In this document: positions 41,072 to 58,243 of the stretch, one piece after another | How the letters are laid out: each line of letters starts with the position of its first letter | Position numbering within the stretch: the stretch's first letter is position 1 | Assembly: GCA_037916975.1 (NCBI GenBank) | Contig: JBAIWX010000007.1 | Span: 41 to 64,040 of the forward strand | Length of the DNA: 64,000 nt | Direction: 5' to 3' | Origin: Gemmatimonadales bacterium | GTDB taxonomy: Bacteria; Gemmatimonadota; Gemmatimonadetes; Gemmatimonadales; GWC2-71-9 | Position numbers and translations under genes: made by a program | The notes under the pieces: model-generated | Seen by the model: only the letters and a program-made list of their open reading frames with translations | Told to the model about the DNA's origin: nothing | Database searches by the model: none

Positions 41072-41077
41072 GGCGTC

Positions 41078-42496: not shown

Positions 42497-43849
42497 CTAC
42501 CCCTTGAGCGTGGAGAGCTGCGAGAGCGACCCGGTGCTCTGCCCCTGGAGGCGGCTGAGCGCGGATTCCATCCGGGCGAACTGGAGGTTGAGCTGGGAGC
42601 GGCGCTGCGCGAGGCGGGCGTCCACGCGCGCGATCCGCTCGTTGAGCGAGTCGATGCGGGCGCGCAGCTGCGTCTCGCGCGTCGCGATGCTGCCGGTCCC
42701 GACGCGGACGAGGTCGTCGGCGAGGCTCGCAAAGGCGGCGCCGCGGTCGGCGGCCATGGCGGTCACGTCGTCGCGGTGCGCGGCGTAGGCGTCGTCGAAC
42801 TTGGCCGCGTTGAACGTCATCCGGCCCTCGCTCGTCAGGCTCACGCCGACGGCGGCGAGGGTCTGGGTGTCCACCCCGACGCTCGTCACCCGCGCGAGCA
42901 CCGTGTTGGACAGCGAGAAGCGGGTGCTGCGGAGCAGGGTGTCGCCGTAGAGCGGGGCCTGGACCCCGTTCACCGGCTGGGCCTGCTGCCCCTTCATGTA
43001 GTCCACGATCCCGTTGTACGCGTCCACGAAGGCCTGCATCGCGTCGCGCGCCGCCTTCGGGTCGGCCGCGATGCGCAGGGTCGCCGTCGTGCCCTGCTCC
43101 TCCGCGAGGAGGTTCAGGGTGACGCCGGGGATCGCGTCGGTGATCGTGTTGGAGCTCCGGGTCACGTCCACCCCGTCCACCCGGATCTTCGCGTCCTGGC
43201 CGGCGGTCGTGAGCAGGTCGAGTTCCCCCGCGCCGAGCACGCCATCGGGGCTCCCGTCGGCGAGGGTGAGCGAGGCGGCGCCGGTCGTCGAGGCCTTGAG
43301 GACGAGGGCGTAGTGCGTCCCGTCGGTCGAGATGACCGACGCGCGCACCTTCGTCGGGGAGGTCCCGGTGTCGAGGGCGTTGATCGCGTCGCGCACGGCG
43401 TTGAGCGAGTCGCCCGCGGCGACGGTGACGGTCTGGCCGTTGACGGTGAACGTGCCGGTGAAGCCGAGGGCCGCGCCCGGGTCGGTGACGGTCGCCTGCG
43501 AGCGGGCGACGCCGGCGCGCGCGCGCTGGACGACCTCGACCTCGTAGTCGCCGGGCTTGGCGAGCAGGCCGGTGGTCGCGCTGAAGAGCGGGCTGCCCGC
43601 GGACGTGGTGCCGGTGACGGTCGCGGCGAGCGCGCCGAGGCCGGAGCCGTCCTTGAGCTTCGTGGCGGCGGTGTTGAGCGCGCCGACCAGGGTGCGGTAC
43701 TTCCCCCACTGGTCGAGCTGGTCCTGCACCTTCGAGACGGTCGCCTCGTCCCGCGCGGCGGGGGCCCGCTCCTGGGCGATGATGGCATCCACGAGCTTCT
43801 TCGTGTCGATGCCGCTCGAGAGGCCGCTGAAGGAGGTGAGCGGGTCCAT
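42497..43849 (-). CDS. fliD: Flagellar filament cap protein FliD
   Basis: 450 aa. MDPLTSFSGLSSGIDTKKLVDAII N-terminus and C-terminal QLNLQFARMESALSRLQGQ heptads. Confidence 0.9.
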   Translation of the reverse strand: MDPLTSFSGLSSGIDTKKLVDAIIAQERAPAARDEATVSKVQDQLDQWGKYRTLVGALNTAATKLKDGSGLGALAATVTGTTSAGSPLFSATTGLLAKPGDYEVEVVQRARAGVARSQATVTDPGAALGFTGTFTVNGQTVTVAAGDSLNAVRDAINALDTGTSPTKVRASVISTDGTHYALVLKASTTGAASLTLADGSPDGVLGAGELDLLTTAGQDAKIRVDGVDVTRSSNTITDAIPGVTLNLLAEEQGTTATLRIAADPKAARDAMQAFVDAYNGIVDYMKGQQAQPVNGVQAPLYGDTLLRSTRFSLSNTVLARVTSVGVDTQTLAAVGVSLTSEGRMTFNAAKFDDAYAAHRDDVTAMAADRGAAFASLADDLVRVGTGSIATRETQLRARIDSLNERIARVDARLAQRRSQLNLQFARMESALSRLQGQSTGSLSQLSTLKG

Positions 43850-43922: not shown

Positions 43923-44747
43923 TCAGCCGCGGAGCAGCGAGAGCACGCCCTGCGAGGACGCGTTCGCCTGCGCCAGCATCGCCACGCCGGCCTGCTGCAG
44001 CACCTGGAACTTCGTGAAGTTCGTGGTCTCCTCCGCCACGTCGAGGTCGCGGATCACCGACTCGGCCGCCTGGATGTTCTGCTTCCGGATGGCCGCGTTG
44101 TCGGCGGCGTAGTCGATGCGGTTCTGCGCCGCGCCGATCTGGCCGATGACCGCCGCGATCTTGGTGCGCGCGCCGGAGAGCGCGGCGAGCGCGCCCGAGG
44201 CGTTCGCGGTGCTGCTGACCGAGGAGCTGTTGAGGCCCAGGGTCGTGAGGTCGAGGGCGTTGATCGAGATCGTGACCTTCGCCGTCGAGGCGGTCGACGA
44301 GCCGACGCGGAAGTCCTTGTTGGCGTAGCCGCCGGTGAGGAGCGCCGTGCCCTGGTACTGCGTTTCACCCACGATCCGGGTGATTTCGTTCTTGAGCTGC
44401 GTGAACTCGGCGTCGAGGTTCGTCTGGTCGCTCGAGGACACGTTCGCGGTCGCCGACGAGGTCGCCAGCTCGCGCATACGGTCGAGGATGCTCGACAGCT
44501 GGTTCACGGTGCCGTCGGCGATGTCGAGCACGGCGCGCGCCTGGGCGGCGTTGCGCTGCGCGGCGCCGAGGGCCTTGGCCTCGCTCCGCAGGCCGTTGGC
44601 GATCGCCGCGCCCGCCACGTCGTCCGCCGACCGGTTGATGCGGAAGCCCGAGGAGAGCTTCTCGATGCTCCGACCGAGGTTCCGGTTGGTGACGGTGAGG
44701 TTGCGGTAGGCGGCGTTCGCCGAGGTGTTGGTCTGGATGACCGACAT
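43923..44747 (-). CDS. fliC: Flagellin
   Basis: 274 aa from ATG 44747 (AGGAG 8 nt upstream). MSVIQTNTSANAAYRNL...SSGFRINRSADD N-terminus, ...LQQAGVAMLAQANASSQGVLSLLRG C-terminus. Short Ser/Thr-rich central region. Confidence 0.95.
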   Translation of the reverse strand: MSVIQTNTSANAAYRNLTVTNRNLGRSIEKLSSGFRINRSADDVAGAAIANGLRSEAKALGAAQRNAAQARAVLDIADGTVNQLSSILDRMRELATSSATANVSSSDQTNLDAEFTQLKNEITRIVGETQYQGTALLTGGYANKDFRVGSSTASTAKVTISINALDLTTLGLNSSSVSSTANASGALAALSGARTKIAAVIGQIGAAQNRIDYAADNAAIRKQNIQAAESVIRDLDVAEETTNFTKFQVLQQAGVAMLAQANASSQGVLSLLRG

Positions 44748-44761
44748 GGGGACTGCTCCTG

Positions 44762-46873
44762 TTACCGATGATTCCGCGGCGTCCCTGCCACGGTCCTGCG
44801 GGAGACGGGCCGTTGCCGGCCTCGCAGAGCAGTATCGGCAGTCCCCCCGGCGACTTGAGCCGGGGCCGCCCCGGCGGCCCCCAGCGCGGCGCGGAGGGGG
44901 GCGGTCTCGGCGGTGCCGTCGGCGAACGCCACCGCGAGCTCGAGGCCGGCGAGCGGGGCCACCATCGGCTCGGCGCCGGGGCGCGAGGTGTCGTCCAGCT
45001 CGCGGGCGCTCAGGGTGAGCCGCGCGAACCAGGCGGGCTCGGCGTCCCGGCAGGTCACGAGGCCGAAGAGCGCCGCGGTCGCGGGGTCGGTCTCCACCCG
45101 CACGGCGCGCGTGGCGTCGCCGAGCCACGCGAGGCCCTCGGTCATCCCGAGGCCGGTGCGGCACGAGACGAGGTGCGAGGCGGGCTGCGTGTGGTCCACG
45201 GTGCGGCCGCCGAGGGGGAAGGCCTCCGGCCGGTCGCCGCCCAGGTGGGTCGCGTAGAAGAGGGAGCCCCGGTCGAATCCCTCGGGCCGCAGGGTCAGGT
45301 GGCCGAGCCGGAGGGTCCCGAGCGGCTCGCCGGCGAAGTGGAGGCGCCAGCGCAGCCCCACGCGGGTGCCCGCGCCGGCGACGGTCACGCGCTTCTCGAT
45401 CGGCCCGAGCGGCGTGCCGATGCGCGCGTCGAGGTGCAGCGCCTCCGCCGCGGGGTCCCAGGTGAGCTCGGGCTCCACCGCCTCGAGGTCGGTCACCTGC
45501 GGCTGGCCGAGCGCGGCGAGCACGAGGAAGCCGGTGTACTGGTCGGCGCTCAGGCTCATGTCGGCGAAGTAGCCGTGCGGGAGCGAGCCGTAGAGCGGGC
45601 GGTCGCCGTGTGCGCGGACGGTGCAGGCATCCACCGCGAGCCCGCGGCGGCGGTTGAGCCGCACCACGAGCTCCGGCGTCTCCACCACGACGACGCGCCC
45701 CTCCCGCCGGACCTGCACGTGGTCGGGCCAGTGGCCCCGGCCGTGGCGCGGCGGCGGCGCCGTCGGCGGCGCGGGAGGCGCGAGGCGCGCGCGGGCGGCG
45801 GCCCAGCGACGCGGCGTCACGTGGGTGCGGAGGTCGCTCGCCCAGAGGGTGCAGAGGTCGCGCCAGGCCGCGGGGTCCTGCTCGTCGTGCGCGGCCAGCG
45901 CGCGGTAGCGGCGCCAGCAGGCGGAGTTGAGGCCGAGGTCGTCGCGGCCCGTGATCGCCCAGCGGGAGAGGGTGTACTTCGCCTGCTTCTTGACCGGCAC
46001 CGGCTGCTCCGCGTCCCCGAGCGGGAGCACGGGGCCCTCGGGGTCGAGGAGCGCCAGCGCGTCGGAGGGGAGGGCGAGCTCGATGCCGGGCTCCCGCGCC
46101 AGTGCCCCGGCCAGGTGACGGATCCGGTCCCACTCGACGAGCGCCGGCAGCGCCGCCTCGGTGCGGTACCGTCCCGGGCGGAAGTCGAAGACCTCGGCGT
46201 CGCCGCCGTAGAGCGCGAGTGCCCGTGGCTCGCGGCCGGCGAAGCGGCGGAGGTACTCGAGCAGCTCCTCGGGCTCGAGGTCGCCGTGGGCGAGGCGCTG
46301 GAACTTCTGGAAGGCGATCGAGTGGTTCCACAGCACGGGGAGCGTGGAGCCGTCGGCCCCGAGCGCGCGCTGGGGGCGGAGCCCGAGCTCGCGGGGCCAC
46401 CCGGGGTGCAGCGCCGCCGGGTTCTCCCACTCCATCACCAGCGCCTCGTAGCCGGCCTCCCGGTAGAGCGGCACGAGCGAGGCGGACCACGCCTGCTCGT
46501 TCACCAGCGCGAGCGTCGGCCGCCGGCCGAGGAGGCGCTCGTAGGTCGCGTGGCCGAGGGCGAGGTTCCAGCGGTTCACGCGCGCCGGCACGAGGGGGCC
46601 GATGAGCTGGACGTAGCCCGAGCCGACGAATTCCGCCCGGCCCCGGGCGACGAGGGCGCGCAGCTCCTCGAGCCAGCCGGGATCGAGCTCGGCGATGCGC
46701 TCGAGGGTCCACCCCGACGCCTCGAGCCCCACCGGGAGGTGGCCGTCCCGCGCGAGGGCGAGCAGCGGCCGGTAGCAGCGCTCGATCACCTGCGCGTGCT
46801 GCTCCTCCTCCACCGAGGAGAAGGCCAGGTTCAGGTGGAAGACGGTGTAGAGGCGGAGCGCGGCGGTGCTCAT
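44762..46873 (-). CDS. GH57-like (glycoside hydrolase 57 / polysaccharide-deacetylase-type barrel) protein with large C-terminal domain
   Basis: 703 aa from ATG 46873 (ATGA overlap with the ATP-grasp gene). N-terminus LYTVFHLNLAFSSVEEEQ...GLEASGWTLE...GSGYVQLIGPL resembles GH57-type catalytic domains. Family call is tentative. Confidence 0.55.
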   Translation of the reverse strand: MSTAALRLYTVFHLNLAFSSVEEEQHAQVIERCYRPLLALARDGHLPVGLEASGWTLERIAELDPGWLEELRALVARGRAEFVGSGYVQLIGPLVPARVNRWNLALGHATYERLLGRRPTLALVNEQAWSASLVPLYREAGYEALVMEWENPAALHPGWPRELGLRPQRALGADGSTLPVLWNHSIAFQKFQRLAHGDLEPEELLEYLRRFAGREPRALALYGGDAEVFDFRPGRYRTEAALPALVEWDRIRHLAGALAREPGIELALPSDALALLDPEGPVLPLGDAEQPVPVKKQAKYTLSRWAITGRDDLGLNSACWRRYRALAAHDEQDPAAWRDLCTLWASDLRTHVTPRRWAAARARLAPPAPPTAPPPRHGRGHWPDHVQVRREGRVVVVETPELVVRLNRRRGLAVDACTVRAHGDRPLYGSLPHGYFADMSLSADQYTGFLVLAALGQPQVTDLEAVEPELTWDPAAEALHLDARIGTPLGPIEKRVTVAGAGTRVGLRWRLHFAGEPLGTLRLGHLTLRPEGFDRGSLFYATHLGGDRPEAFPLGGRTVDHTQPASHLVSCRTGLGMTEGLAWLGDATRAVRVETDPATAALFGLVTCRDAEPAWFARLTLSARELDDTSRPGAEPMVAPLAGLELAVAFADGTAETAPLRAALGAAGAAPAQVAGGTADTALRGRQRPVSRRTVAGTPRNHR
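44832..44858 (-). promoter_or_regulatory. Sigma-28 promoter of fliC, embedded in the 3' end of the upstream ORF
   Basis: The minus strand reads CTCAAGT CGCCGGGGGGACT GCCGATAC, i.e. TCAA-N15-GCCGATAC, about 85 nt upstream of the fliC ATG. Confidence 0.65.
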
Positions 46874-48090
46874 GCGGCGGTCCGGATGCCGAGCGCGGCC
46901 ACCGCCGCCTCGGCGCGCGCGACGGCCTCGGCGCGGTCGCGGCCCACGGCGATGGCACAGGCGGCGCGCAGCGTGTGGTTCGACGGGGGTGGCAGCTCGT
47001 CGCCGGGGCGCACGAAGCAGACCACGCGGCGCACGCCCGGGAGCGCCGCCGCGCGCTCCACGCCCTCGACCGCGGTCACGCGGCCCGGGGGCGGGAAGGC
47101 GTAGCGGATCGCCACGCCCTCGGCGCGGACGGGGACGAGCTCCTCCGCGCGGACCGTCTCGCCCAGGGCGAGGCGGATCGCGGCGCCGACGAAGTCCACG
47201 CCCGTGTGGAGCGGGATCTGGTCGGAGGAGAGCCAGCCGCCGCTCAGGCGCGCGGCGATCTCGATCACCTTCGGGCCCTCCGGGGTGAGGACCATGTCTC
47301 CCTTGATCACGCCCCGCGCGATCCCGAGCGCCGCCCCGGCGCGGGCCGCGAGCTCGGCGACGGCGTCGCGGTCCCGCGGCGCCAGCACCGACGGCTGCTG
47401 GCCGCCGTTCTCGATGATGAACGGTGCGTAGCGGTCGAGCAGCTCGTAGTTCCGCTCGGCGAAGCCCAGCGTCACCGTCCGGTCGCCCAGCGCGAGCGCC
47501 TCCGTGCTGAACTGCGGCCCCGTTTCGTATTCCTCGACCATCACCCGCCCGGTCGGGCTGTGGCGCACCGACTCGGCCCACGCCCACGCGGGGTCGGTGT
47601 CGCGCGCGAGGCGGAGGACGCCGCGCGCGCCGCGGCTGTCCACCGGCTTGAGCACGAGGGGGCGTGGGTGGTCGCGGAGGAGCGCGCCGAGCTCGGCGGC
47701 GCCCGCGACCGGACGGAACCACGGCACCGCCACCCCCGCGGCGCGGAGCCGCTCCTTCATGGCGAGCTTGTCCGCGGCCAGGTGCGCCGCGTCGAGCGGC
47801 AGGCCGGGGAGGCCGAGGGCATGGGCGACGGTCGCGACGGTGACGGGCACGTCGGCACCCAGGCTCAGCACGCCGTCCACGCGGCCGCCGGCGGCCCGAT
47901 GCGCCGCCGCGGCCCGCACGACCCCCTCCGGGTCGTAGGTGCTCGCCACGAGCACGTGGTCGGCGAGGCGAGCGCCGGGGGCGTCGGGGTTCAGGTCCGC
48001 GACGGCGACGTCGAGGCCCAGCGCGCGGGCGCGCTCGATGCCGGGGACGGCCTCGAGCCCGCCGCCCACGACGAGGAGCGTCCTACGCAC
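46870..48090 (-). CDS. ATP-grasp domain ligase
   Basis: 406 aa. LLVVGGG pre-ATP-grasp Rossmann region, DKLAMKERL...PLVLKPVDSRGARGV...MVEEY...IEIAARLSGG. Confidence 0.8.
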   Translation of the reverse strand: MRRTLLVVGGGLEAVPGIERARALGLDVAVADLNPDAPGARLADHVLVASTYDPEGVVRAAAAHRAAGGRVDGVLSLGADVPVTVATVAHALGLPGLPLDAAHLAADKLAMKERLRAAGVAVPWFRPVAGAAELGALLRDHPRPLVLKPVDSRGARGVLRLARDTDPAWAWAESVRHSPTGRVMVEEYETGPQFSTEALALGDRTVTLGFAERNYELLDRYAPFIIENGGQQPSVLAPRDRDAVAELAARAGAALGIARGVIKGDMVLTPEGPKVIEIAARLSGGWLSSDQIPLHTGVDFVGAAIRLALGETVRAEELVPVRAEGVAIRYAFPPPGRVTAVEGVERAAALPGVRRVVCFVRPGDELPPPSNHTLRAACAIAVGRDRAEAVARAEAAVAALGIRTAA

Positions 48091-49798
48091 GGGTCCACAT
48101 CCGGTCGAGCGTCTGGCCGGCGAGGAGCATCGGCGAGACGTCCTCGAGCGGGTCCACGACGCAGTGGAGCAGGGCGGGGCCCCTGGCCTCGAGGAGGCGG
48201 GCCACCGCCGCGGGCAGCGCCGCCGCGGCCGAGACCGTCTCCGCCTGCAGCCCGTAGGCGCGCGCGATCGCGGCGAAGTCCGGGTTCCACTTGTCGCCGC
48301 AGGTCGGGTCGCGCTGCCAGTTGAGCCGCTGGAACTGCGATACGATGCCGAGGCGGTGGTTGTCGAGCACGACCACCTTCACCGGCAGCTCGTAGGCGAC
48401 GAGCGTCGCGAGCTCCTGGATGTTCATCTGGAGCGAGCCGTCCCCGACGATGCAGAGCACCGTCGTGCCGGGGGCGCAGTGCTGGGCACCCATCGCCACG
48501 GGCAGGTCGAAGCCCATCGCCCCGTGCCCGCCGGAGGTGAGCCAGCGCCGCGTGGGGAAGTCGAAGTCGAAGTGGCGCGCCACCCACTGCTGGTGCGACC
48601 CGACGCCCGAGACGCAGACCACCGGGCGCCCCGCGGTCGCGCGGTTGAGCCCGGCCACCACCGCCTGCGGCTTGAGCGGGTCGCCGCCCTCGACCCGGAG
48701 GCCGTGCTCGGCCCGCCACGCGGCGAGCTGCGCGTGCCACGGGGCCCGGTCGGGGACGCGCCGGCCCCGCAGCGCGGCGAGGAGCCCGGCGAGGCCGTCC
48801 CGCGCGCCGGCGTGGATCACGCAGTGCGAGGCCACGCGCGGGTGCGCGAGCTCGGCGGGATCGAGCTCGATGCGCACGATCCGCGCGCGCGGCGCGAACT
48901 GGTCGGTGCGCGAGCCGGTCTGCCGCAGGTCGAGGCGCGAGCCCACGACGACGAGCACGTCGGCGTGCTGGATCGCGAGGCCGGCGACCTGGTTGCCGGT
49001 GTGCCCGTGGAAGCCGAGCGCGAGCGGGTGCGCCGTCGGGAAGGCGCCCAGCCCGAGGAGGCTCATCGTCACCGGGATCCCGCCCTCGAGCGCGAGGGCG
49101 CGGAGCTCCGTCTCCGCGCCCGCGAGGAGCACCCCCTGCCCGGCGAGGAGGAGCGGCCGTTCCGCCGTCGCGAGCCACTCCGCCGCCTCTGCGAGGCGCG
49201 CCGGGTCGGGCACCAGGACCGGCGCCGGCTCCGCCGGGGCCGGCACGGCCGCGGGCGCCTCGCCCAGCTGGCCGCGCTGCACGTCCATCGGCAGGTCCAC
49301 GAGCACGGGGCCGGGGCGGCCTTCGCCCGCGAGGCGGAACGCCTCGGCCATCGCGCCCGCGACCTCGGCCGGGGTGCGCGGCTGGAACTGCGCCTTGGTG
49401 ATCGGCGCCATGAGGGCGACGGTGTCCACCTCCTGGAAGCCCCGCTGGCGCACCGGCCGGGTGCCGCGCATGTCCCCGGTGCCGACCTGGCCGGTGCACA
49501 CCACGAGCGGCACCGAGTCGAACCAGGCGTCGGCGACCGGGGTCACGACGTTCGTGACGCCGGGTCCCGAGGAGACGAGCACCACCTGCGTGCTGCCGTG
49601 GATGCGCGCGGCGGCGAGCGCGGCGTAGCCGGCGCCCTGCTCGTGCCGGGGGCAGAGGATGCCGATGCCCGCGTCCTCGAGGAGGTCGAGCACCGGGGCG
49701 ATCGTGCCGCCCGGATAGACGTACGCCGACTCGATCGCGTGGCGCCGGAAGGCCGCGACGACCGCGTGGGCGCCGGTGAGGACGAGCGTGTCAACCAA
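48083..49798 (-). CDS. Thiamine-diphosphate-dependent enzyme (acetolactate-synthase-like/YerE-like carboligase)
   Basis: 571 aa. PGGTIAPVLD...HEQGAGYAA...SGPGVTN N-domain, and the ThDP motif IVGDGSLQMNIQELAT. Confidence 0.85.
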   Translation of the reverse strand: MVDTLVLTGAHAVVAAFRRHAIESAYVYPGGTIAPVLDLLEDAGIGILCPRHEQGAGYAALAAARIHGSTQVVLVSSGPGVTNVVTPVADAWFDSVPLVVCTGQVGTGDMRGTRPVRQRGFQEVDTVALMAPITKAQFQPRTPAEVAGAMAEAFRLAGEGRPGPVLVDLPMDVQRGQLGEAPAAVPAPAEPAPVLVPDPARLAEAAEWLATAERPLLLAGQGVLLAGAETELRALALEGGIPVTMSLLGLGAFPTAHPLALGFHGHTGNQVAGLAIQHADVLVVVGSRLDLRQTGSRTDQFAPRARIVRIELDPAELAHPRVASHCVIHAGARDGLAGLLAALRGRRVPDRAPWHAQLAAWRAEHGLRVEGGDPLKPQAVVAGLNRATAGRPVVCVSGVGSHQQWVARHFDFDFPTRRWLTSGGHGAMGFDLPVAMGAQHCAPGTTVLCIVGDGSLQMNIQELATLVAYELPVKVVVLDNHRLGIVSQFQRLNWQRDPTCGDKWNPDFAAIARAYGLQAETVSAAAALPAAVARLLEARGPALLHCVVDPLEDVSPMLLAGQTLDRMWTRA

Positions 49799-50522
49799 GG
49801 TGGAACCCTCCGTTCACGCCGAGCACCTGCCCGGTGACGTAGCCTGCGGCGGGCGACGCGAGGAAGGCGATGGCGTCCGCCACTTCCCCGGCGCTGCCGG
49901 CCCGGCCGAGCGGGACCTGCTGGAGCTTCTGCGCGGCGCCCGCGCTCGCGCGCTCGGCGGCGGTCATCTCGGTCTCGATGAGGCCCGGGGCGACGGCATT
50001 CACGCGGACGCGCGGGGCCCCGAGCCGGGCCAGCGAGCGCGTCAGGCTGATGAGCGCCGCCTTGCTCGCGGCGTAGTGCACGGCGAGCGTCCCGCCCACC
50101 TGCCCGCCGACCGAGCTCACGTTCACCACCGTGCCGGAGGCGTCCTCGAGCAGCGGCCACGCCTCCTGGCAGAGCTGGAAGACGCCCCGGAGGTTCACGG
50201 CGAGCATCTCGTCCCACTCGTCGTCGGTGATCGCGGACCACGGCTTCTGCACGAGCATCCCCGCGTTGTTGACCAGCAGGTCGAGCCCGCCCCACGCGGC
50301 GCGCACGGCGGCGACGAGGGTGCGCGCCGAGGCGCGCTCTCCCTGCGCGTAGGGCAGCGCGAGTGCGCGCCGGCCGATGGCGGAGATGGCGGCGGCGGCG
50401 TCCTGCGCCTCGCGCTCGCGCCGGTGCCAGGTGACGGCGACGTCCCAGCCGGCGCGGGCGAGGGCCAGCGCCGTCGCCCGGCCGATCCCCCGGCCGCCCC
50501 CGGTCACGAGCGCGCGCGGCAC
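49791..50522 (-). CDS. Short-chain dehydrogenase/reductase (FabG-like)
   Basis: 243 aa from GTG 50522. TGGGRGIG, NNAG, S...YAASK catalytic motif, PGLIET. Confidence 0.85.
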   Translation of the reverse strand: MPRALVTGGGRGIGRATALALARAGWDVAVTWHRREREAQDAAAAISAIGRRALALPYAQGERASARTLVAAVRAAWGGLDLLVNNAGMLVQKPWSAITDDEWDEMLAVNLRGVFQLCQEAWPLLEDASGTVVNVSSVGGQVGGTLAVHYAASKAALISLTRSLARLGAPRVRVNAVAPGLIETEMTAAERASAGAAQKLQQVPLGRAGSAGEVADAIAFLASPAAGYVTGQVLGVNGGFHLG

Positions 50523-50524
50523 GG

Positions 50525-51772
50525 TCAGTAGGCCTCGACGCGGTCGTAGAGCCGCACGATCCGCCCGGCGGGCACGCCGAGTTCCTGCGCGGCGGCCGCG
50601 ATCGCCCCGGTGTGGCCGTACGAGGAGACGACGAGGCACGCATCCGCCCAGTCCACGGCGGCGAGCGCGTCGGGGGGCACGATGGGGAGCCCGCGCCAGC
50701 GGCGGCCGAGCTTCACGGGGTCGCGGTCCACGAGGAGGAACTCGCGGCCCGGGTCGTGGAAGAGCGTCGTAAGCTGGTGCAGGAACTCGGTGTGCGCCCC
50801 CGCGCCCCAGATCGCCACCCGCCGGAAGGGGTGCACGGCGGCGAGCCGGGCCTCGACCCGCGCCACGGCGCGGTGCCAGCCGGCGAGGTAGTCGAGGAGG
50901 CGGGCGTGGTCGCCCTCGCTCGCGGTGGGTGCCCGCGGGGTGGCGGGCCGGGCGACGACGCGGCAGCCGCCGTAGCCCGGCGCCATCCACGTCTCGACGA
51001 TCGCCCAGCCGGCGCGCGCGAGCGTCTCCGCGAGGGTGTGCCGGCTGAAGTGCGTCGTGTGCTGGACGGAGAAGAAGCCGTTGATGTCCTCGCGGAGGCC
51101 GGTCTCGAGCACCGGCACCTCGACCACGAGGGCCGTGCCGGCGTGCGCGATGCGCCGCAGGTTCTCGAGCACCTGCACCGGGCGGGGCAGGTGCTCGAGG
51201 ACCATGAACATGGTGATCACGTCGGGCACGGTCGCCGGGCGGAAGTGCTCGAAGTCGCCCAGGACCAGCTCCACCGGCTCGCCTGCGAGGCGTGCGCGGG
51301 CCCGCTCGAGGGCGGGGGCGTCGAGGTCCACGCCGACCTTCCGGAGCCCGGGGCCCATCGTGGCGAGGAGCCGCCCCTCGAAGCAGCCGGCGTCGAGCAC
51401 CGCGGCGCCCGGCTCGAGGAGGCCGCGGGCGCGGAGCCAGGCGACCTGCTCCTCGGGCCGTCCTTCGGTGCTCAGGTACGACTGGCCGGCCTCCGCGAAG
51501 AGGCAGGCGTAGCCGTAGGGGGTGTAGACCGGGTCGAGGTAGAGCGCGAGGCAGTCGCGGCACTGCCGTTCGCGGACATCCACCCGCTTCGGCACCGTCG
51601 CCGAGTCGGTGAAGAACTGGAAGTCGGAGAGCTCGAGCACGGTGCGGGCCCGCCGCGAGTCGCAGACCGGGCAGGGGCGGTGCATGAGCAGCGCGGCGTC
51701 GGTGCGCGCGGGCGCGGCGGCGTCGAGCGCGCTCCAGCGCGCCGCAGGCGCGGCGACAGGGGCGGCAGTCAT
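50525..51772 (-). CDS. SAM-dependent methyltransferase with N-terminal Zn-ribbon and C-terminal Rossmann-like domain (sugar C-methyltransferase architecture)
   Basis: 415 aa. CPVC...CRDC, VLDAGCFEGRL SAM motif, and a C-terminal VAIWGAGAHTEFL domain. Confidence 0.7.
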   Translation of the reverse strand: MTAAPVAAPAARWSALDAAAPARTDAALLMHRPCPVCDSRRARTVLELSDFQFFTDSATVPKRVDVRERQCRDCLALYLDPVYTPYGYACLFAEAGQSYLSTEGRPEEQVAWLRARGLLEPGAAVLDAGCFEGRLLATMGPGLRKVGVDLDAPALERARARLAGEPVELVLGDFEHFRPATVPDVITMFMVLEHLPRPVQVLENLRRIAHAGTALVVEVPVLETGLREDINGFFSVQHTTHFSRHTLAETLARAGWAIVETWMAPGYGGCRVVARPATPRAPTASEGDHARLLDYLAGWHRAVARVEARLAAVHPFRRVAIWGAGAHTEFLHQLTTLFHDPGREFLLVDRDPVKLGRRWRGLPIVPPDALAAVDWADACLVVSSYGHTGAIAAAAQELGVPAGRIVRLYDRVEAY

Positions 51773-52506
51773 CGGATCCCCGAGGGCACGGCGCGGGGCA
51801 CGTGCCGGTTCAGGTCCACGAGGTCGGGCCGGGCGTCGAGCGCGGCCAGGAGGTCGGTCGTCCGGAACGGGCGCGGGAGCGCATCGAGCGCCCCGGCGAG
51901 TGTATCGGCGAAGGCGAGGTCGGCGGGGTCGTCCACCGAGAGCCGGAGGCCGGGCCGGGCGGCGTCACGCGCGGGAATCGGGATCTCCGCCACGCGGAGC
52001 GTGCCGAGCCGGTGCCGCGCGAGGAGGGCGAGGTGCTCGCGCTCGGCGGGGTCGGTCACCGTCGGCGCGAGCGCCGCGAGCGTGGCGACCCGCCAGGGGT
52101 CGATCCCCTCGTGGATGCTCGGCCGGTCGCCGGTGGCGCAGTCGGCGCCGGTGGCCCGCATCACCCGCACGGCGGCGTCCACCACGTCGGGGCAGAGGAA
52201 GGGGCAGTCGCCCGTGATGCGGAGGACGACGTCGAGCGACCAGCGGCGGGCGGCGTCGAGATACCGCTGCAGCACGTCGTCCACCGGCCCGCGATGGCAG
52301 GGGACGCCCGCCGCGTCGCACCACGCCGCGACGGCGTCGTCGCCCGGGTCGGTGGTCGTCGCGACGGCGACGAGGTCGAGCGTGGTCGCGAGCCGGAGCC
52401 GTTCCACCGCGCGCGCGAGCAGCGGCCGGCCGGCGATCGGCCGGAGGACCTTGCCCGGCAGCCGCGTGCTGCCCATGCGGGCCTGGACGACGGCGCCCGC
52501 CCTCAT
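51769..52506 (-). CDS. Cytidylyltransferase (SpsF/PseF-like nonulosonate CMP-transferase family)
   Basis: 245 aa from ATG 52506. AVVQARMGSTRLPGKVL...RITGDCPF. Confidence 0.7.
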   Translation of the reverse strand: MRAGAVVQARMGSTRLPGKVLRPIAGRPLLARAVERLRLATTLDLVAVATTTDPGDDAVAAWCDAAGVPCHRGPVDDVLQRYLDAARRWSLDVVLRITGDCPFLCPDVVDAAVRVMRATGADCATGDRPSIHEGIDPWRVATLAALAPTVTDPAEREHLALLARHRLGTLRVAEIPIPARDAARPGLRLSVDDPADLAFADTLAGALDALPRPFRTTDLLAALDARPDLVDLNRHVPRAVPSGIR

Positions 52507-53483
52507 GCGGCCTCCGCGAGCTCGGCGGCGAGGGCCGCGAGGCGCGCCGCCCCGTCGGCTTCCGCGAGTGCCTCGCGGGCGCGGGGTGCGGAGCCGCCGC
52601 ACCACACGGGGTCCAGCACCGTCTCGGCGAGCCGCGCCGTGACCGCCGCCGCGTCGAAGGCATGCCCGGCACCGGCGAAGGCGCCGACGCCCGCGGCCTC
52701 GAGCCGGCGGGCGGCGGCGTCGTCCTCCGCACGATGGGACAGCCACGCGACCGGCGTGCCGAGCGCGCCGGCGTCGTAGGCGGTGGTGCCGAAGCCGGTG
52801 ATCACGGCGCGGGCGCCCGCGAGGCGGCGGACGAGCTCCCCGCGCGTGGGGGCGCGGAGCACCGTCGCGCCCCGCGCCGCGAGGCGCTCGGCGCGCGCGG
52901 CGTCCATGGCGGGGCCGGCGACCACCGTCACGGCGCCCGCCTGCGGCAGCGACGCGAGCAGGTCGTACAGCCGCTCCGTCAGGCCGAGCGGGTCGGCGCC
53001 GCCCACCGTGAGGAGCGTCCCGTGGCGCCCGTCGGGCCAGCGGGTCGCGACGTGAGTCCGGACCTCCGGCGCCAGCAGGCACCAGGCGGCGCCGTGGAGC
53101 GCGGGGGTGCCCGGCGGGAGGTCGGCGTGCAGGGCGGGGATGACCGTCCGCGTCGCCGCATCGAGGCAGTCCACGCGGTCGAGCACGATCGTCGGCGCAC
53201 CGGCGCGGCGCGCCGCGGCGAGGATCGCGGCGACGTCCCGGCGCGTGTCCACCAGCAGGCATCGCGCGTCGCGCACCGTGGACGCGGGCTCCCCCCAGCC
53301 GGCCACCTCCGCCCGGGGCCGCTCCCGCGCGAGCGCGCGGCGCGCCGCCAGGTCGCCCTCGAGGTGGAACCGGCTCGAGAGCCCGCGCCGGTCGGCCGCT
53401 TCGGCGACGCTCAGGCAGCGATAGAGGTGGCCCAGGCCCTCGCGGGCGTCGGCGCTCGTCACGAACGCGAGGTCGGTGCTCAC
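52503..53483 (-). CDS. PseG/SpsG-like UDP-sugar hydrolase (GT28 C-terminal-like fold)
   Basis: 326 aa from GTG 53483 (GTGA overlap). FVTSADAREGLGHLYRCLSVAEA...TVGGADP...ITGFGTTAYD. Confidence 0.55.
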   Translation of the reverse strand: MSTDLAFVTSADAREGLGHLYRCLSVAEAADRRGLSSRFHLEGDLAARRALARERPRAEVAGWGEPASTVRDARCLLVDTRRDVAAILAAARRAGAPTIVLDRVDCLDAATRTVIPALHADLPPGTPALHGAAWCLLAPEVRTHVATRWPDGRHGTLLTVGGADPLGLTERLYDLLASLPQAGAVTVVAGPAMDAARAERLAARGATVLRAPTRGELVRRLAGARAVITGFGTTAYDAGALGTPVAWLSHRAEDDAAARRLEAAGVGAFAGAGHAFDAAAVTARLAETVLDPVWCGGSAPRAREALAEADGAARLAALAAELAEAA

Positions 53484-54340
53484 GGCGCCACCAGCCCGGC
53501 GCGCGTCGCGCGGAGGGGGCGGAGCCCGTCGTGCGGGTCGGCGCGCCACGCGCGGTCGGGCGCCTCGCTCGGCGCGGGGACCTTCGTGCCGCTGCCGTCG
53601 GCGGCGTCCGCCTCGCGCACCTGCGCGATGAGCGCCCGCATCGGCTCGGGGAGCCAGCAGTGGCCGGTGCGGAACTCGTCCCCCTGGCCGTCGAGGTCGA
53701 GGTGGAACTCGACGAACGACGCCCCCCAGCGGTGCACCGCGCGGTGGATCACGCCGGGGCGCACGCTGTGGTCGGACCAGCCCACCGCGCAGCGGAACTG
53801 CCGGCGCAGCGTCTCGAGCGCCGCGAGGTTGCAGTCCTCGAGCGGCGTCGGGTAGCCGGAGACGCAGTGGAGCAGCGTCAGGTCGCGCGCCCCCGCGCCG
53901 CGGGCCACCGCGACGGCGTGGCCGATCTCGTCGAGGGTCGCCATCCCGGTGGAGAGCACGAGCGGCTTCCCGGTCGCCGCGCAGGCCCGCAGGAGCTCGT
54001 CCCAGAGCAGCTCGTACGAGGCCACCTTGTAGAACGCGACGAAGGGCCGCAGCTCCTCGACCGCCTCGAGGTAGAACGGCGTGCAGCCGAAGGCGACGCC
54101 GCGGTCGGCGCACCGGCGCGCGATGGGCTCGAGGAAGGCGACCGGCAGCTCCCACGCCTCGCGGGCCCGCAGCTGCGCGTGGCGCGCGAGGGCCTCCGGG
54201 GCGAAGAGCTCCCGCACCCGGAAGAGCTGGAACTTGACGGCGTCGCAGCCGATGTCGGCCGCCGCGTCCACGAAGGCGAGGCAGCGGTCGAGGTCCCGGC
54301 CGTGGTTGCTCGATACCTCGGCGACGAAGCGCACGCTCAT
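53480..54340 (-). CDS. NeuB-family nonulosonic acid synthase (PseI/SpsE-like), no SAF domain
   Basis: 286 aa. VAEVSSNHGRDLDRCLAFVDAAADIGCDAVKFQ...KVASYEL...STGMATLDEI...LLHCVSGYPTP...GWSDHS. Confidence 0.8.
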   Translation of the reverse strand: MSVRFVAEVSSNHGRDLDRCLAFVDAAADIGCDAVKFQLFRVRELFAPEALARHAQLRAREAWELPVAFLEPIARRCADRGVAFGCTPFYLEAVEELRPFVAFYKVASYELLWDELLRACAATGKPLVLSTGMATLDEIGHAVAVARGAGARDLTLLHCVSGYPTPLEDCNLAALETLRRQFRCAVGWSDHSVRPGVIHRAVHRWGASFVEFHLDLDGQGDEFRTGHCWLPEPMRALIAQVREADAADGSGTKVPAPSEAPDRAWRADPHDGLRPLRATRAGLVAP

Positions 54341-55497
54341 GCCGCCTCCCGCACCCGCCCGACCACCTCGCGCACCGTCGCGATGACGGTGGCGACGTCG
54401 GCGTCGCCGAGCGCGGGGTACATCGGGAGCGAGATGGCCCCCGCGTAGTACGCCTCCGCCTGCGGCAGCGTCGTCGTGGCATGGCCGGTCCGCCGCCAGT
54501 ACGGGTGCCGGTACACGGGGAGGTAGTGCACGTTCACGAGCAGCCCCGCGGCGCGGAGCGCCTCGAACGTGGCGCGGCGGCGGCCGGCGGGCACCCGGAT
54601 CACGTAGAGGTGGTAGCTCCCCTCCGACCAGGCCGGGGAGCGCAGCGGCGCGAGGCCCGGCACGCCGTCGAAGGCGGCGTCATACCGCGCGGCGATCTCC
54701 CGGCGCCGCGCGACGAAGGCGGGCAGCCGGCGCAGCTGGCTCCGGCCGAGCGCGCACTGGAGGTCGGTGATCCGGTAGTTGAAGCCGAGCTCGTGCTGCT
54801 CGTAGTACCACGGCCCCTCGTCGCGGGTCAGCTCGGCCGGGTCGCGCGTGATCCCATGGGTGCGGAACCGGCGGAGCCGCGCGGCGAGCGCGGCGTCGTT
54901 GGTCGTGACCGCGCCGCCCTCGCCGGTCGTGATGTGCTTCACGGGGTGGAAGCTGAAGCAGCACATCGCGCTGTGGGCGCACGCGCCGACCCGGTGCCAG
55001 CGGCCGTCGGCCGTGCGGTAGCGCGCGCCCAGCGCGTGCGCCGCGTCCTCGACGATCGCCCAGCCGCGCCGGGCCGCGACCGCCGCGAGGCGCTCGAGGT
55101 CCGCGACGTGGCCCGCGAGGTGGACGGGCACGACCGCCCCGACCTCGGGCGCCATCTCGCGCGCCACGGCCTCGGGGTCGAGCAGCGCGAAGGCGGGGTC
55201 CACGTCCGCGAAGCGGACCGGGGCGCCCAGGTAGCGCGCGGCGTTCGCCGTGGCGGCGAAGGTGATCGGGGAGGTGAGGATGCCGCGGTCCGGCCCGAGG
55301 TCGAGCGCCGCGTAGGCGGCGTGCAGCGCGGCGGTGCCGCTGTTGAACGCCACGGCGAAGCGCGCGCCGACCGCGGCGGCGAGGTCGGCCTCGAACGCCT
55401 CGACCCCCGGTCCCTGCGTCAGGGCGGGGGCACGGACCGCCGCCATCACCGCGGCGACGTCCGACTCGTCGATCCACTGCCGGCCGTAGGGGAGCAT
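54337..55497 (-). CDS. pseC: UDP-4-amino-4,6-dideoxy-N-acetyl-beta-L-altrosamine transaminase (DegT/DnrJ/EryC1 family)
   Basis: 386 aa from ATG 55497. MLPYGRQWIDESDV start typical of PseC. SFHPVKHITTGEGG contains the PLP-Lys. Confidence 0.8.
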   Translation of the reverse strand: MLPYGRQWIDESDVAAVMAAVRAPALTQGPGVEAFEADLAAAVGARFAVAFNSGTAALHAAYAALDLGPDRGILTSPITFAATANAARYLGAPVRFADVDPAFALLDPEAVAREMAPEVGAVVPVHLAGHVADLERLAAVAARRGWAIVEDAAHALGARYRTADGRWHRVGACAHSAMCCFSFHPVKHITTGEGGAVTTNDAALAARLRRFRTHGITRDPAELTRDEGPWYYEQHELGFNYRITDLQCALGRSQLRRLPAFVARRREIAARYDAAFDGVPGLAPLRSPAWSEGSYHLYVIRVPAGRRRATFEALRAAGLLVNVHYLPVYRHPYWRRTGHATTTLPQAEAYYAGAISLPMYPALGDADVATVIATVREVVGRVREAA

Positions 55498-55499
55498 CG

Positions 55500-56519
55500 T
55501 CAGAGGAGCCCCTGCGTCGCGAGGAGCTCGCGCACCTGCGTCACGGTGAGCCGCTCGGGGTTCGTGTCGCTCCGGTACACGAAGTCGTCCGGCACGGCGT
55601 GGCCGTTCTGCCGGGCGTAGTGCCCGTTCCACCAGGGGAAGTGCGGCTGGACGACGTAGTAGTCGCCCATGTCGAGCGTCGTGCGCGCGTCGTCGGCGGA
55701 GATCATGAGCTCGTGGAGCTTCTCCCCGGGCCGGATCCCCACGTGCCGGAGCGGGACGCCGGGCGCCACCGCCTCGGCGACCGTCAGGATGTCGGCGGAG
55801 GGGATCTTCGGCACGAAGAGCTCGCCGCCCAGCATCCGGCCGAGCGAGGCGAGGACGAATTGGACGCCCTGCTCGAGGGTGATCCAGAAGCGCGTCATCC
55901 GCTCGTCGGTGATGGGCAGGAACCCCTCCCGGCGCTGCTCCAGGAAGAAGGGGACCACGCTGCCGCGGCTCCCGACCACGTTGCCGTACCGGACGACGGC
56001 CATCCGCGGGCCGCGACCGCCGCTGTAGGCGTTGCCCGCGACGAAGAGCTTGTCCGAGCAGAGCTTCGTGGCGCCGTAGAGGTTGACCGGGTTCGCCGCC
56101 TTGTCGGTGCTGAGCGCCACGACGCGCTCGACGCCGCGGCTCACCGCCGCGTCGATGACGTTCTGGGCGCCCAGGATGTTCGTCTTGATGCACTCGAACG
56201 GGTTGTACTCCGCCGCCGGCACCTGCTTGAGCGCCGCGGCGTGGACCACGATCTGCACGTCGTCGAGCGCGCGGTGGAGCCGCTCGGCGTCGCGCACGTC
56301 GCCGAGGAAGAAGCGCATCCGGGGGTCCGGGAACTGCCGCTGCATCTCCGACTGCTTGAGCTCGTCGCGGCTGTAGACGATCACGCGCCGCGGGTTGTGG
56401 TGCTGCAGCAGCTCGGCCACGAAGGCCCGGCCGAACGAGCCGGTGCCGCCGGTCACGAGGAAGGACCGGCCGTCGAAGAGGTTGGCGGAGTACATCCGCG
56501 CTTCGGACGCGGCGCTCAT
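55500..56519 (-). CDS. pseB: UDP-N-acetylglucosamine 4,6-dehydratase (inverting)
   Basis: 339 aa from ATG 56519. LVTGGTGSFG, STDKAANPVNLYGATK, VRYGNVVGSRGSV. Confidence 0.85.
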   Translation of the reverse strand: MSAASEARMYSANLFDGRSFLVTGGTGSFGRAFVAELLQHHNPRRVIVYSRDELKQSEMQRQFPDPRMRFFLGDVRDAERLHRALDDVQIVVHAAALKQVPAAEYNPFECIKTNILGAQNVIDAAVSRGVERVVALSTDKAANPVNLYGATKLCSDKLFVAGNAYSGGRGPRMAVVRYGNVVGSRGSVVPFFLEQRREGFLPITDERMTRFWITLEQGVQFVLASLGRMLGGELFVPKIPSADILTVAEAVAPGVPLRHVGIRPGEKLHELMISADDARTTLDMGDYYVVQPHFPWWNGHYARQNGHAVPDDFVYRSDTNPERLTVTQVRELLATQGLL

Positions 56520-58243
56520 GCGGGACTCCCGATGGATTGGGGTGCCCGCCGCGGGCGGCGGGCGCGGGGACCGCGGGCGATGCGCCGCAGCGCCGCGAGC
56601 TTGCGCGGCAGCGGCGCGGCGTCGGCCCGCGCGTAGCTGGCGAGGGGATGCGGCCCCGCGGGGGGGCGGAGCGCCCGCAGTGCGGCGGCGAGCTCGGCCG
56701 CCGTGCGCGTCACGGCCACCGGGGCGCGGTCGAGCCAGGTGACGCCGGCGCCCGAAAGGTGGACCACGAAGGGCACGCCGAGCTGCGCGGCCGCGAAGAG
56801 CGTCGTGGACGAGCCGGTGATGGCGCCGTCCGCCCCGTGCAGCACCGTCCAGGGGTCGAGGCCCGTCTCGATGCGCACGTCCGGGAAGCCGCGCTCGGCG
56901 CAGTGCCCACGGATCATGTCCGGGTTGTCGTGGAACGGGTGGCACTTCACCACGATCTCGGCGCCCGGGTGCACCTCGGCGAGCGCGGTGAGCGCATCGT
57001 CCAGCATCGCCTCCCCGTGCAGGACCGAGGCCTCCGCGTTCCACGGCGCGCCGGTGGGCGACGGGAGGATCACGAAGCGCTTCCGCGGGGCGGGCGGCAC
57101 CGGCTCGTCCCGGAGCGCGGCGAGGTGCGCCCCCGCCTGCGGCCAGCCGATCACCCAGCGCTCGCCGTGGAACGCCGCGCGATCGAGCTCGCGCGCCGCC
57201 TCGCGGCTCCAGACGAGGTGGTGGTCCGCGTAGCGGTGGTTCGGGTGCCCTGCCTCGATGCCCATGAAGGCGCCGTGCTGCACCAGCACCGTGGGGATGC
57301 CGAGGCGCCGGCAGGCGAGGAGCTTCGCGCGGTGCTCGGGAAAGTAGTCGTTGCCGGTCACGAGGAGGCGCACCTCGGCCGCCGCATAGGCGGCGCGCGC
57401 GTACTCGTACTCCTCGACGAGGTGCGGCTGCCAGAGGAGCGCCAGGTGCACCGCCAGCTCGCGCTCCCACGGCTCGGCGAGCGTCTCGAGCGCGGCGGGG
57501 CAGCCGGGGTCCTCGAGCGGGGCGCGCGCCTCGCGCGCCTCCGCCCGCGCGACCGGCCCGTCGTAGGTCGCCGGCCAGCGGGCCCGCTCCTCCTGGATGA
57601 ACTCGAGCACCCGGCCGCGCGACGCGAGCAGGTCGGGCATCAGGTGCGCGATCTCGTTGGTGTGGTGCACGAGCGCGCGCGGCGCGCGGCTCCTCGGCAG
57701 CGTGCGGCCGCGCCAGCTCGGCCGCACGAAGTCCTGCGGCCGCGGCATGAGCGGGTAGTCGTGGCGGCGCGAGATCGTCTCGGCGCGGTCGTCGTGCGGG
57801 TCGAAGGCCGCCGTCGGGACCTCGAGCTCCTGGCAGGTGAGGTTGATCACCGCCCCCTGGATCCAGCCCTCGAGGTCGTGCACGACCGCCGTCCGGCTCC
57901 CGAGGCGGTCGAGGCCCGCCTGCACGAGCCGGCGCGTCCGCGCCCCCTGGCTGCTCACGTAGAGCAGGGGCAGCTCGAGCGCCCACCACGCCCAGTCGGC
58001 GTAGGAGGTCGTCGCCGGCATGGTCGTGCCGGTGACCGCGCGCACGAGGCGCGACGTGTGGTGCTGCATCGCCAGCCGCTCGGCGGGACCGAGGAGCTCG
58101 TCCTCGAGGAGGCAGGGGATGTCGAGCTCGGCGCAGACGTCGCGGGTGGCCGTGGACCAGGTGCCCACGAGCGCGGGGCGCTCGCCGGCACGCACCAGCT
58201 CGAGCACGCTGCGGCCGCTGTTGAGGATGGCGAGAAAAGACAT
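56516..58243 (-). CDS. Large GT-B-like protein, candidate (flagellin) glycosyltransferase
   Basis: Track ORF 56516..58279 (TTG). ATG 58243 (MSFLAILNSG) is preferred. The C-terminal Rossmann-like half has VVKCHPFH and ITGSSTTLFAAAQLGVP. No named family recognised. Confidence 0.5.
   Translation of the reverse strand: MSFLAILNSGRSVLELVRAGERPALVGTWSTATRDVCAELDIPCLLEDELLGPAERLAMQHHTSRLVRAVTGTTMPATTSYADWAWWALELPLLYVSSQGARTRRLVQAGLDRLGSRTAVVHDLEGWIQGAVINLTCQELEVPTAAFDPHDDRAETISRRHDYPLMPRPQDFVRPSWRGRTLPRSRAPRALVHHTNEIAHLMPDLLASRGRVLEFIQEERARWPATYDGPVARAEAREARAPLEDPGCPAALETLAEPWERELAVHLALLWQPHLVEEYEYARAAYAAAEVRLLVTGNDYFPEHRAKLLACRRLGIPTVLVQHGAFMGIEAGHPNHRYADHHLVWSREAARELDRAAFHGERWVIGWPQAGAHLAALRDEPVPPAPRKRFVILPSPTGAPWNAEASVLHGEAMLDDALTALAEVHPGAEIVVKCHPFHDNPDMIRGHCAERGFPDVRIETGLDPWTVLHGADGAITGSSTTLFAAAQLGVPFVVHLSGAGVTWLDRAPVAVTRTAAELAAALRALRPPAGPHPLASYARADAAPLPRKLAALRRIARGPRARRPRRAPQSIGSPA

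Follow-up and report, generated by a model that had tools for sequence, protein, structure and literature searches.

The closest described relative of the genes considered here is the sfm operon of Shewanella oneidensis MR-1, in which sfmABCDE encode a NeuB protein, an IlvB-like thiamine diphosphate (ThDP) enzyme, a FabG-like reductase, an S-adenosylmethionine (SAM) methyltransferase and an ATP-grasp protein of 290, 581, 255, 395 and 412 aa, respectively (Bubendorfer et al. 2013, PMC3765264). In-frame deletions of sfmA, sfmB, sfmC and sfmD left the flagellin unmodified and abolished normal motility, whereas deletion of sfmE gave partly modified flagellin with a slightly smaller mass shift (PMC3765264). 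The core of the glycan, 274 Da (C11H18N2O6), was read as mono-acetyl pseudaminic acid and is O-linked to five serines; a second unit is nitrogen-free, has a mass of 236 Da (C9H16O7) plus zero to two CH2 and includes at least one O-methyl, and no oxonium ion of its 264-Da form was observed (PMC3765264). Here we analyse a 64,000-nucleotide stretch of DNA from a Gemmatimonadales bacterium (the whole stretch is referred to below as the window; GenBank assembly GCA_037916975.1, contig JBAIWX010000007.1), in which three adjacent genes within a flagellar locus encode a ThDP carboligase, a short-chain dehydrogenase/reductase (SDR) and a methyltransferase. On the homology of its genes, this trio is a member of an Sfm-type flagellin-modification module, and thus of a combination that is already known genetically and is not new. 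An earlier note on the same DNA knew of no precedent for it; the same gene set is, however, the one that was found in 2013 to be genetically required for flagellin modification in Shewanella. That note also read the trio apart from its most conserved partners, an ATP-grasp ligase and a glycoside hydrolase family 57 (GH57)-like protein. We found no paper after 2013 that mentions sfmABCDE, and nothing useful in the literature on acetolactate synthase or transketolase in connection with flagellin glycosylation.

Homology between the window and Shewanella was computed with Shewanella electrica (locus L070 of the set described below), not with MR-1 itself. The S. electrica locus encodes a NeuB of 286 aa, a ThDP enzyme of 581 aa, an SDR of 246 aa, a methyltransferase of 394 aa and an ATP-grasp protein of 405 aa, in the sfm order, with a GH57-like gene, a cytidylyltransferase fusion, pseC and pseB further along. 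The window proteins are 60% (NeuB), 47% (ATP-grasp), 45% (ThDP enzyme, E 8e-167) and 36% (SDR) identical to these counterparts, and the methyltransferase is 25% identical (E 2e-15). As in the sfm operon, the five gene types are contiguous in the window, adjoin pseB, pseC and flagellar genes, and have nearly the same sizes. The order differs, being NeuB, PseG-like protein, CTP-transferase, methyltransferase, SDR, ThDP enzyme and ATP-grasp in the window, and NeuB, ThDP enzyme, SDR, methyltransferase and ATP-grasp in Shewanella. Furthermore, the window operon has no Maf (MptE-like) protein but an unrelated 575-aa protein at its head, and its host is Gemmatimonadales-like, with a G+C content of 75%.

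Four other described systems resemble parts of the locus. As in YerE and YerF of yersiniose A synthesis, and as in ErwE, JanthE and PpYerE, the ThDP enzyme of the window has three domains, is of the acetohydroxyacid synthase (AHAS) type and belongs to a surface-glycan cluster, in which the next gene encodes a ketoreductase. Unlike these systems, the window has no genes for a cytidine diphosphate (CDP)-3,6-dideoxyhexose, the only keto sugar at hand being the product of PseB, and YerE clusters are not known to us to include an ATP-grasp ligase, which the window has. The methyltransferase shares with TylC3, TcaB9 and KijD1, the 3-C-methyltransferases of nucleoside diphosphate (NDP)-hexoses, a Zn-ribbon with four Cys, a class I SAM domain and a C-terminal domain; C-methylation of an NDP-4-keto sugar is only putative for the window, whereas Shewanella has at least one O-methyl on the nitrogen-free unit. 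With the canonical PseB-PseC-PseH-PseG-PseI-PseF pathway the window shares coupled genes for PseB, PseC, a NeuB-family synthase and a cytidylyltransferase, but it lacks PseH, its PseG is faint, its NeuB has no SAF domain and five extra enzymes are interleaved. Finally, the split transketolases of the miharamycin and amipurimycin clusters, Streptomyces antibiotic clusters for which branching of keto sugars has only been proposed (PMC12247030), resemble proteins encoded in 42 of 80 loci homologous to ours, the window itself carrying the AHAS-like version.

Because the G+C content of the window is so high, lists of its open reading frames (ORFs) are full of false frames and unreliable in raw form, and the genes were therefore delimited with a plot of third-position G+C and then by placement of start codons. 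The plot shows the minus-strand genes in a single unbroken series, from 58243 down to 43923, and third-position G+C in the coding phase is 0.92-1.00 for the ThDP, SDR and methyltransferase genes. An operon of 11 genes, whose identities are backed by Pfam and NCBIfam, lies on the minus strand between fliW and fliC. Stop and start codons overlap by 4-8 nt along this operon, and the trio is translationally coupled. The features are as follows.

56516-58243, minus strand: first gene of the operon, a possible glycosyltransferase of 575 aa (weak match to DUF6716, E 0.009)
55500-56519, minus strand: PseB-type 4,6-dehydratase, 339 aa (Polysacc_synt_2, E 2e-93)
54337-55497, minus strand: PseC aminotransferase, 386 aa (TIGR03588, 464.7 bits against a cut-off of 423.5)
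53480-54340, minus strand: short NeuB-family synthase, SfmA-like, 286 aa (NeuB, E 8e-62; no SAF domain)
52503-53483, minus strand: divergent PseG-like protein, 326 aa (weak match to TIGR03590, 26.9 bits, E 5e-6)
51769-52506, minus strand: cytidylyltransferase resembling cytidine monophosphate (CMP)-nonulosonate synthetases, 245 aa (CTP_transf_3, E 8e-25)
50525-51772, minus strand: three-domain SAM methyltransferase of the TylC3/TcaB9 type, SfmD-like, 415 aa (Methyltransf_23 and related domains)
49791-50522, minus strand: classical FabG-like SDR ketoreductase, SfmC-like, 243 aa (GTG start at 50522; adh_short, E 2e-55)
48083-49798, minus strand: AHAS/YerE-like ThDP carboligase, SfmB-like, 571 aa (TTG start; TPP_enzyme_N, TPP_enzyme_M and TPP_enzyme_C)
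46870-48090, minus strand: ATP-grasp carboxylate-amine ligase, SfmE-like, 406 aa (LAL_C2, ATP-grasp_3 and ATPgrasp_N domains)
44762-46873, minus strand: GH57-like protein, 703 aa (Glyco_hydro_57, E 4e-16)
43923-44747, minus strand: flagellin FliC, the presumed glycan acceptor, 274 aa (Flagellin_N and Flagellin_C)
42497-43849: fliD, after fliC

The trio thus stands on the minus strand where the earlier note had placed it, and all of the motifs quoted there were found. The flagellar setting is also real, since fliC and fliD are accompanied in the window by a sigma-54 activator and fliF. In the first gene of the operon no Maf (MptE-like) domain was found, the faint DUF6716 glycosyltransferase match being the only one, and two small ORFs at 40754-41521 matched no family in Pfam or NCBIfam. 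In the closest Gemmatimonadales locus (L011), the head of the operon is occupied by a 722-aa tetratricopeptide repeat protein and not by the 575-aa protein.

The ThDP enzyme has the three ThDP domains (TPP_enzyme_N, M and C, at E 3e-29, 4e-33 and 2e-45), the GDG-N27-N motif (GDGSLQMN...DNH, at residue 452) and the catalytic Glu (HEQG, at residue 52) of the IlvB type. Its best NCBIfam match is the acetolactate synthase large subunit, as that of the SDR is FabG, both below cut-off; the ThDP enzyme scores 494.6 bits with the IlvB equivalog TIGR00118, for which the cut-off is 538.35, and falls far below the cut-offs of the remaining AHAS equivalogs. The housekeeping copy lies in a leuA-ilvB-ilvN-ilvC cluster on contig C294 and is 40-42% identical to the flagellar enzyme, which has no adjoining small-subunit gene. 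A paralogue of the flagellar type was found in none of 30 related genomes, which carry only the housekeeping type, and in public protein sets the window enzyme has a large family of homologues, at 56-81% identity. In a quick maximum-likelihood tree (midpoint root, support by the Shimodaira-Hasegawa-like approximate likelihood ratio test (SH-aLRT) only, YerE sequences not included), the module-linked copies form a single clade on a long stem, with an SH-aLRT value of 99, apart from the IlvB clade.

The acceptor pocket of AHAS (yeast W586; loop GQVxxxxxGxDAFQE) is not reproduced in the window enzyme, which has Phe instead of Trp (VSQFQ), a difference that is fixed in its clade. Its active-site loop is six residues longer (RPVRQRGFQE), as in all members of the clade (…RGxRPVRQRGFQE). 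This insertion aligns without gaps with Protein Data Bank entry 5ahk (GQVNTHELKGKRDIRQQGFQE) and, by alignment span, with 8rph, and it is absent from every true AHAS structure compared. Entry 5ahk is probably the YerE of Pseudomonas protegens (PpYerE) and 8rph probably JanthE, although neither deposit bears the name YerE. Over its whole length the window enzyme is nonetheless closer to true AHAS than to either of these, scoring 347 bits with Escherichia coli AHAS I, 292 bits with 5ahk and 211 bits with 8rph. In yeast AHAS the carboxylate of the acceptor is bound by R380; this Arg, part of the GxRxDxR motif, is retained as GSRLDxR throughout the clade. The earlier note had allowed that the enzyme might cluster with genuine acetolactate synthases; its own clade, the separate leuA-ilvB-ilvN-ilvC copy and the loop insertion show it to be distinct from the housekeeping acetolactate synthase of the cell.

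The descriptions of the other two proteins in the earlier note also held. The SDR, in addition to its adh_short match, has the motifs of the classical SDRs (TGGGRGIG at residue 7, NNAG at 85 and YAASK at 150), in agreement with its reading as FabG-like, and a ketoreductase next to the ThDP gene is compatible with a YerF-like role. In the methyltransferase, Pfam recognizes class I SAM domains at E 2e-15. Its Zn-ribbon contains the Cys pairs CPVC (residue 34) and CRDC (residue 71); in an alignment of 20 homologues C34, C37, C71 and C74, and likewise E193, H194 and H238, are invariant; the family also has a conserved C-terminal WGAGxHT domain. A profile of the family matches 4rv9, 3ndi and 5t64, that is, D-mycarose 3-C-methyltransferase, TcaB9 and a sugar 3-C-methyltransferase, over their full length of three domains (E 7e-29 to 4e-26). 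H194 and H238 align with the active-site residues His181 and His225 of TcaB9; immediately before the latter, TcaB9 has Glu (Glu224) and the window protein Gln. The window protein matched neither PF08421 nor PF08484 even at E 10; a homologue in locus L061 reaches 21.1 bits with PF08484, for which the cut-off is 23.5. The layout of Zn-ribbon, SAM domain and C-terminal domain proposed earlier is thus borne out by the full-length profile match and the four invariant Cys, and by these alignments the family is a distant branch of the TylC3/TcaB9 type.

To describe the distribution of the module, an alignment of the ATP-grasp protein was scanned against one genome per species, which gave 80 loci; with three loci from the context of ThDP homologues the set comprises 83. 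Since the loci are related to one another, the counts given here describe a pattern and are not independent tests. The 80 loci belong to Thermodesulfobacteriota, Gemmatimonadota (the closest), Acidobacteriota, Actinomycetota, Bacteroidota, Verrucomicrobiota, Planctomycetota, Spirochaetota, Myxococcota, Pseudomonadota (with two Shewanella species among others) and one marine thaumarchaeote, so that the module occurs in more than 10 phyla, non-flagellated lineages among them. Module neighbours also surround the three close ThDP homologues, of which two belong to flagellar loci and the third to a locus of the polysaccharide type. The ATP-grasp protein is the most conserved product of the module, its homologues in the 80 loci being 44-60% identical. 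The SDR gene lies directly upstream of the ATP-grasp gene in 79 of the 83 loci, and a GH57-like gene is present in 68 of the 83. ATP-grasp, SDR, the GH57-like gene and the short NeuB form the core of the module.

The ThDP gene, in contrast to this core, is exchanged. Of the 80 loci, 26 carry an AHAS-like gene and 42 have a split transketolase (Transketolase_N, then Transket_pyr with Transketolase_C) in its place, and no locus has both; one locus has a third ThDP type, a divergent decarboxylase-like enzyme. Three loci (L025, L044 and L068) have the ATP-grasp and GH57-like genes without any ThDP gene. The TylC3-type methyltransferase accompanies the ThDP enzymes, being found in 39 of the 68 loci with a ThDP gene and in one of the 12 without.

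Some individual loci have features of their own. The exchange of ThDP types is seen even within one genus, S. profunda (L065) having the split transketolase and S. electrica the AHAS-like gene. The form of the split transketolase is illustrated by L061:7392-9255, where two genes stand at the usual place of the AHAS-like gene; in the same locus, from a Micropepsaceae genome, a sulfotransferase-like gene (L061:4523-6085) lies inside the module, so that the glycan may have a sulfated form. A PIG-L de-N-acetylase gene and a formyltransferase gene are inserted between the ATP-grasp and GH57-like genes at L012:12995-14620 and L084:11224-12851, which suggests that in these lineages the 5-N-acetyl group is swapped for formyl. 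Locus L031, from a metagenome-assembled genome (MAG) labelled Pedobacter sp., is near-identical to loci L028 and L038 of Pelobacter MAGs and has a flagellin gene downstream. Bacteroidota have no flagella, and this contig is therefore probably mis-binned or mislabelled. The thaumarchaeal locus (L037), from a Marine Group I single-cell genome with a short upstream flank, has the SDR and ATP-grasp pair at 39% and 44% identity.

Among solved structures, the nearest to the ATP-grasp ligase is that of an L-amino-acid ligase (3vot). The N-terminal 250 aa of the GH57-like protein align with the 4-alpha-glucanotransferase of Thermococcus litoralis (1k1w), and the positions of its nucleophile Glu123 and its acid/base Asp214 are retained; the C-terminal part of 380 aa matched no family in Pfam or NCBIfam. 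The NeuB of the window is the only strong NeuB of the genome. Module NeuB proteins of 284-287 aa, in which the C-terminal SAF domain of PseI/NeuB is missing, are encoded in L011, L012, L013, L068 and L070. The PseG-like ORF gave no match in Pfam. PseH was sought with TIGR03585, and no match was found in the genome, which is 99.6% complete. Without PseH, the amino group introduced by PseC stays free or is acylated by another enzyme.

From these observations we tentatively favour, at a confidence that falls somewhat short of even, a nonulosonate-tailoring module of the Sfm type, in which the ThDP enzyme, the SDR and the methyltransferase build an acid and the ATP-grasp ligase attaches it in the place of PseH. 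For the substrates, the order of the steps and the amide link, we infer the following. PseB, PseC, the PseG-like protein, the short NeuB and the cytidylyltransferase would make a CMP-activated, pseudaminic-acid-like sugar, which would keep only the acetyl group inherited from uridine diphosphate (UDP)-N-acetylglucosamine, because PseH is missing. In parallel, a 2-keto acid, either pyruvate or hydroxypyruvate, would provide a C2 unit, which the ThDP enzyme would transfer to the carbonyl group of an oxygen-rich acceptor; the adjoining SDR would reduce the resulting alpha-hydroxyketone, and the TylC3-type methyltransferase would then add at least one methyl group. The outcome would be a nitrogen-free polyhydroxy or methoxy carboxylic acid. 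This the ATP-grasp ligase would couple to the free amino group, the future N7, that is normally acetylated by PseH, and the completed sugar would be transferred to flagellin.

In favour of this scheme, the core of the Shewanella glycan has no carbons to spare. What the ThDP enzyme and the methyltransferase make must accordingly sit in the nitrogen-free unit, and it is in this unit, not in the nonulosonate core, that the methyl heterogeneity is located (PMC3765264). The parent compound C9H18O8 has one ring or double bond and is therefore a single unit, a ring sugar or an open-chain acid, and not a glycosyl plus an acyl group; with a carboxylate-amine ligase in the operon, an open-chain acid is the simplest reading of C9H16O7. 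The loci without ThDP genes would be expected if the ThDP/SDR pair supplies just one of several possible acids. The lack of PseH, the strong conservation of the ATP-grasp gene, the conserved Arg of GSRLDxR and the co-occurrence of the methyltransferase with ThDP enzymes also speak for the scheme. By arithmetic many compositions fit C9H16O7, and sequence cannot choose among them: a hexuronate with a pyruvate-derived C2 unit, reduction and one methyl; a 3-deoxyheptulosonate with a C2 unit; a reduced 3,9-dideoxynonulosonate; or a dihydroxyethyl-branched methylhexose. Two threonate units (C8H12O8), or any pair of a glycosyl and an acyl group, are excluded by the measured formula. We rejected the nonulosonate itself as the 2-keto-acid donor of the ThDP enzyme, since neither the transketolase alternative nor the fragments of the glycan can be squared with it.

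Several observations weigh against this scheme. If the trio made only the appendage, its deletions in Shewanella should resemble that of ATP-grasp, with the core still attached; they resemble that of NeuB instead, so that an extra assumption is needed, for example dead-end products or a transferase that rejects the wrong acyl forms. The loop insertion shared with 5ahk and the type of the methyltransferase speak for nucleotide sugars as the substrates. The scheme assigns no role to the GH57-like protein, although this is conserved and keeps both catalytic positions, and the chemistry is transferred by analogy from Shewanella proteins that are only 25-60% identical. The wider claim, that a ThDP enzyme, a ketoreductase and a methyltransferase make a C8 or C9 polyhydroxy, methoxy acid that an ATP-grasp ligase attaches to the amino group of the sugar, and that this constitutes a widespread PseH-independent route, seems to us possible but rather doubtful.

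The proposal of the earlier note was that the trio branches or C-methylates the 4-keto product of PseB. The ThDP enzyme would then act like YerE and place an acetyl or hydroxyacetyl branch on UDP-4-keto-6-deoxy-N-acetylhexosamine; the SDR, in the manner of YerF, would reduce this branch and the TylC3-type enzyme would C-methylate the sugar beside its keto group, giving a branched or C-methylated nonulosonate precursor. The substrate is produced within the same operon, and the loop insertion that aligns with 5ahk and is missing in true AHAS would suit such a reaction, as would the full-length match of the methyltransferase profile to 3-C-methyltransferases of NDP-4-keto sugars, with the two His positions of TcaB9 invariant. 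Branching of keto sugars has been proposed for YerE-like enzymes, alpha-KADH2 (alpha-keto-acid dehydrogenase E1-like) enzymes and split transketolases (PMC12247030), a range of classes that the exchange in 42 of the 80 loci parallels, and the loss of glycosylation on deletion of sfmB, sfmC or sfmD, as on deletion of the NeuB gene, also speaks for this proposal. It conflicts, however, with the composition of the Shewanella core, which is exactly that of a mono-acetyl diamino-nonulosonate without extra carbon and whose two nitrogens imply that C4 is aminated and not branched, and with the location of the methyls, at least one of them an O-methyl, on the other, nitrogen-free unit. Furthermore, a bona fide PseC, scoring above the TIGR03588 cut-off, would be a competitor for this ketone. 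The SDR belongs to the classical FabG-like enzymes and not to the extended nucleotide-sugar SDRs, and the ATP-grasp ligase would be left without a substrate. We therefore consider the proposal unlikely, although it is the main rival of our scheme.

Alternatively, the nitrogen-free unit could be built on the glycan as a neutral, branched sugar, by attachment of a hexose (perhaps by the GH57-like protein as a transglycosylase), oxidation, branching by the ThDP enzyme or transketolase, reduction and methylation; we regard this as quite improbable. Such a route would follow the proposals for miharamycin and amipurimycin, in which split transketolases branch keto sugars (PMC12247030). The formula C9H16O7 is exactly the sum of a hexosyl group, C2H4O2, one reduction and one CH2, and the route would employ the GH57-like protein, which keeps both catalytic positions and is so common in the loci. 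It would, however, make the lack of an oxonium ion of the 264-Da unit hard to explain, would require hydroxypyruvate as the donor for the AHAS-like version and both oxidation and reduction by one SDR, and would leave the most conserved gene of the module, that for ATP-grasp, without a role. Nor do we know of any GH57 enzyme that uses such donors. That the trio consists of ordinary primary-metabolism genes that merely lie within a flagellar locus is suggested by the top NCBIfam matches, but is very improbable indeed, given the sub-cut-off scores, the canonical leuA-ilvB-ilvN-ilvC cluster elsewhere, the missing small subunit, the overlaps with neighbouring genes, the same neighbours in 80 loci of many phyla and the lack of a paralogue in the 30 related genomes.

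Motility, and recognition by phages and by the immune system, are shaped by the nonulosonic-acid glycans of flagella and capsules, in which it is the side groups that vary. The Sfm set was formerly only a curiosity of Shewanella with an unsolved appendage of 236-264 Da; the 80 loci show it to be a common and mobile module of soil, sediment and marine bacteria. To our knowledge the wide occurrence of the module, the set of genes that forms its core and the interchange of two ThDP enzyme types are new, as are the loop that the ThDP clade shares with 5ahk and the TylC3-type nature of the SfmD-like proteins. Since two unrelated ThDP types appear to serve one step, the chemistry is narrowed to a two-carbon carboligation, and ThDP biocatalysis gains a new clade of YerE/AHAS-like carboligases. 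The window and the 80 loci now define concrete enzymes and substrates for testing. If the PseH-independent route is true, it would be the first ThDP-dependent formation of a C–C bond in nonulosonate biology, and would add a new class of N-acyl substituents.

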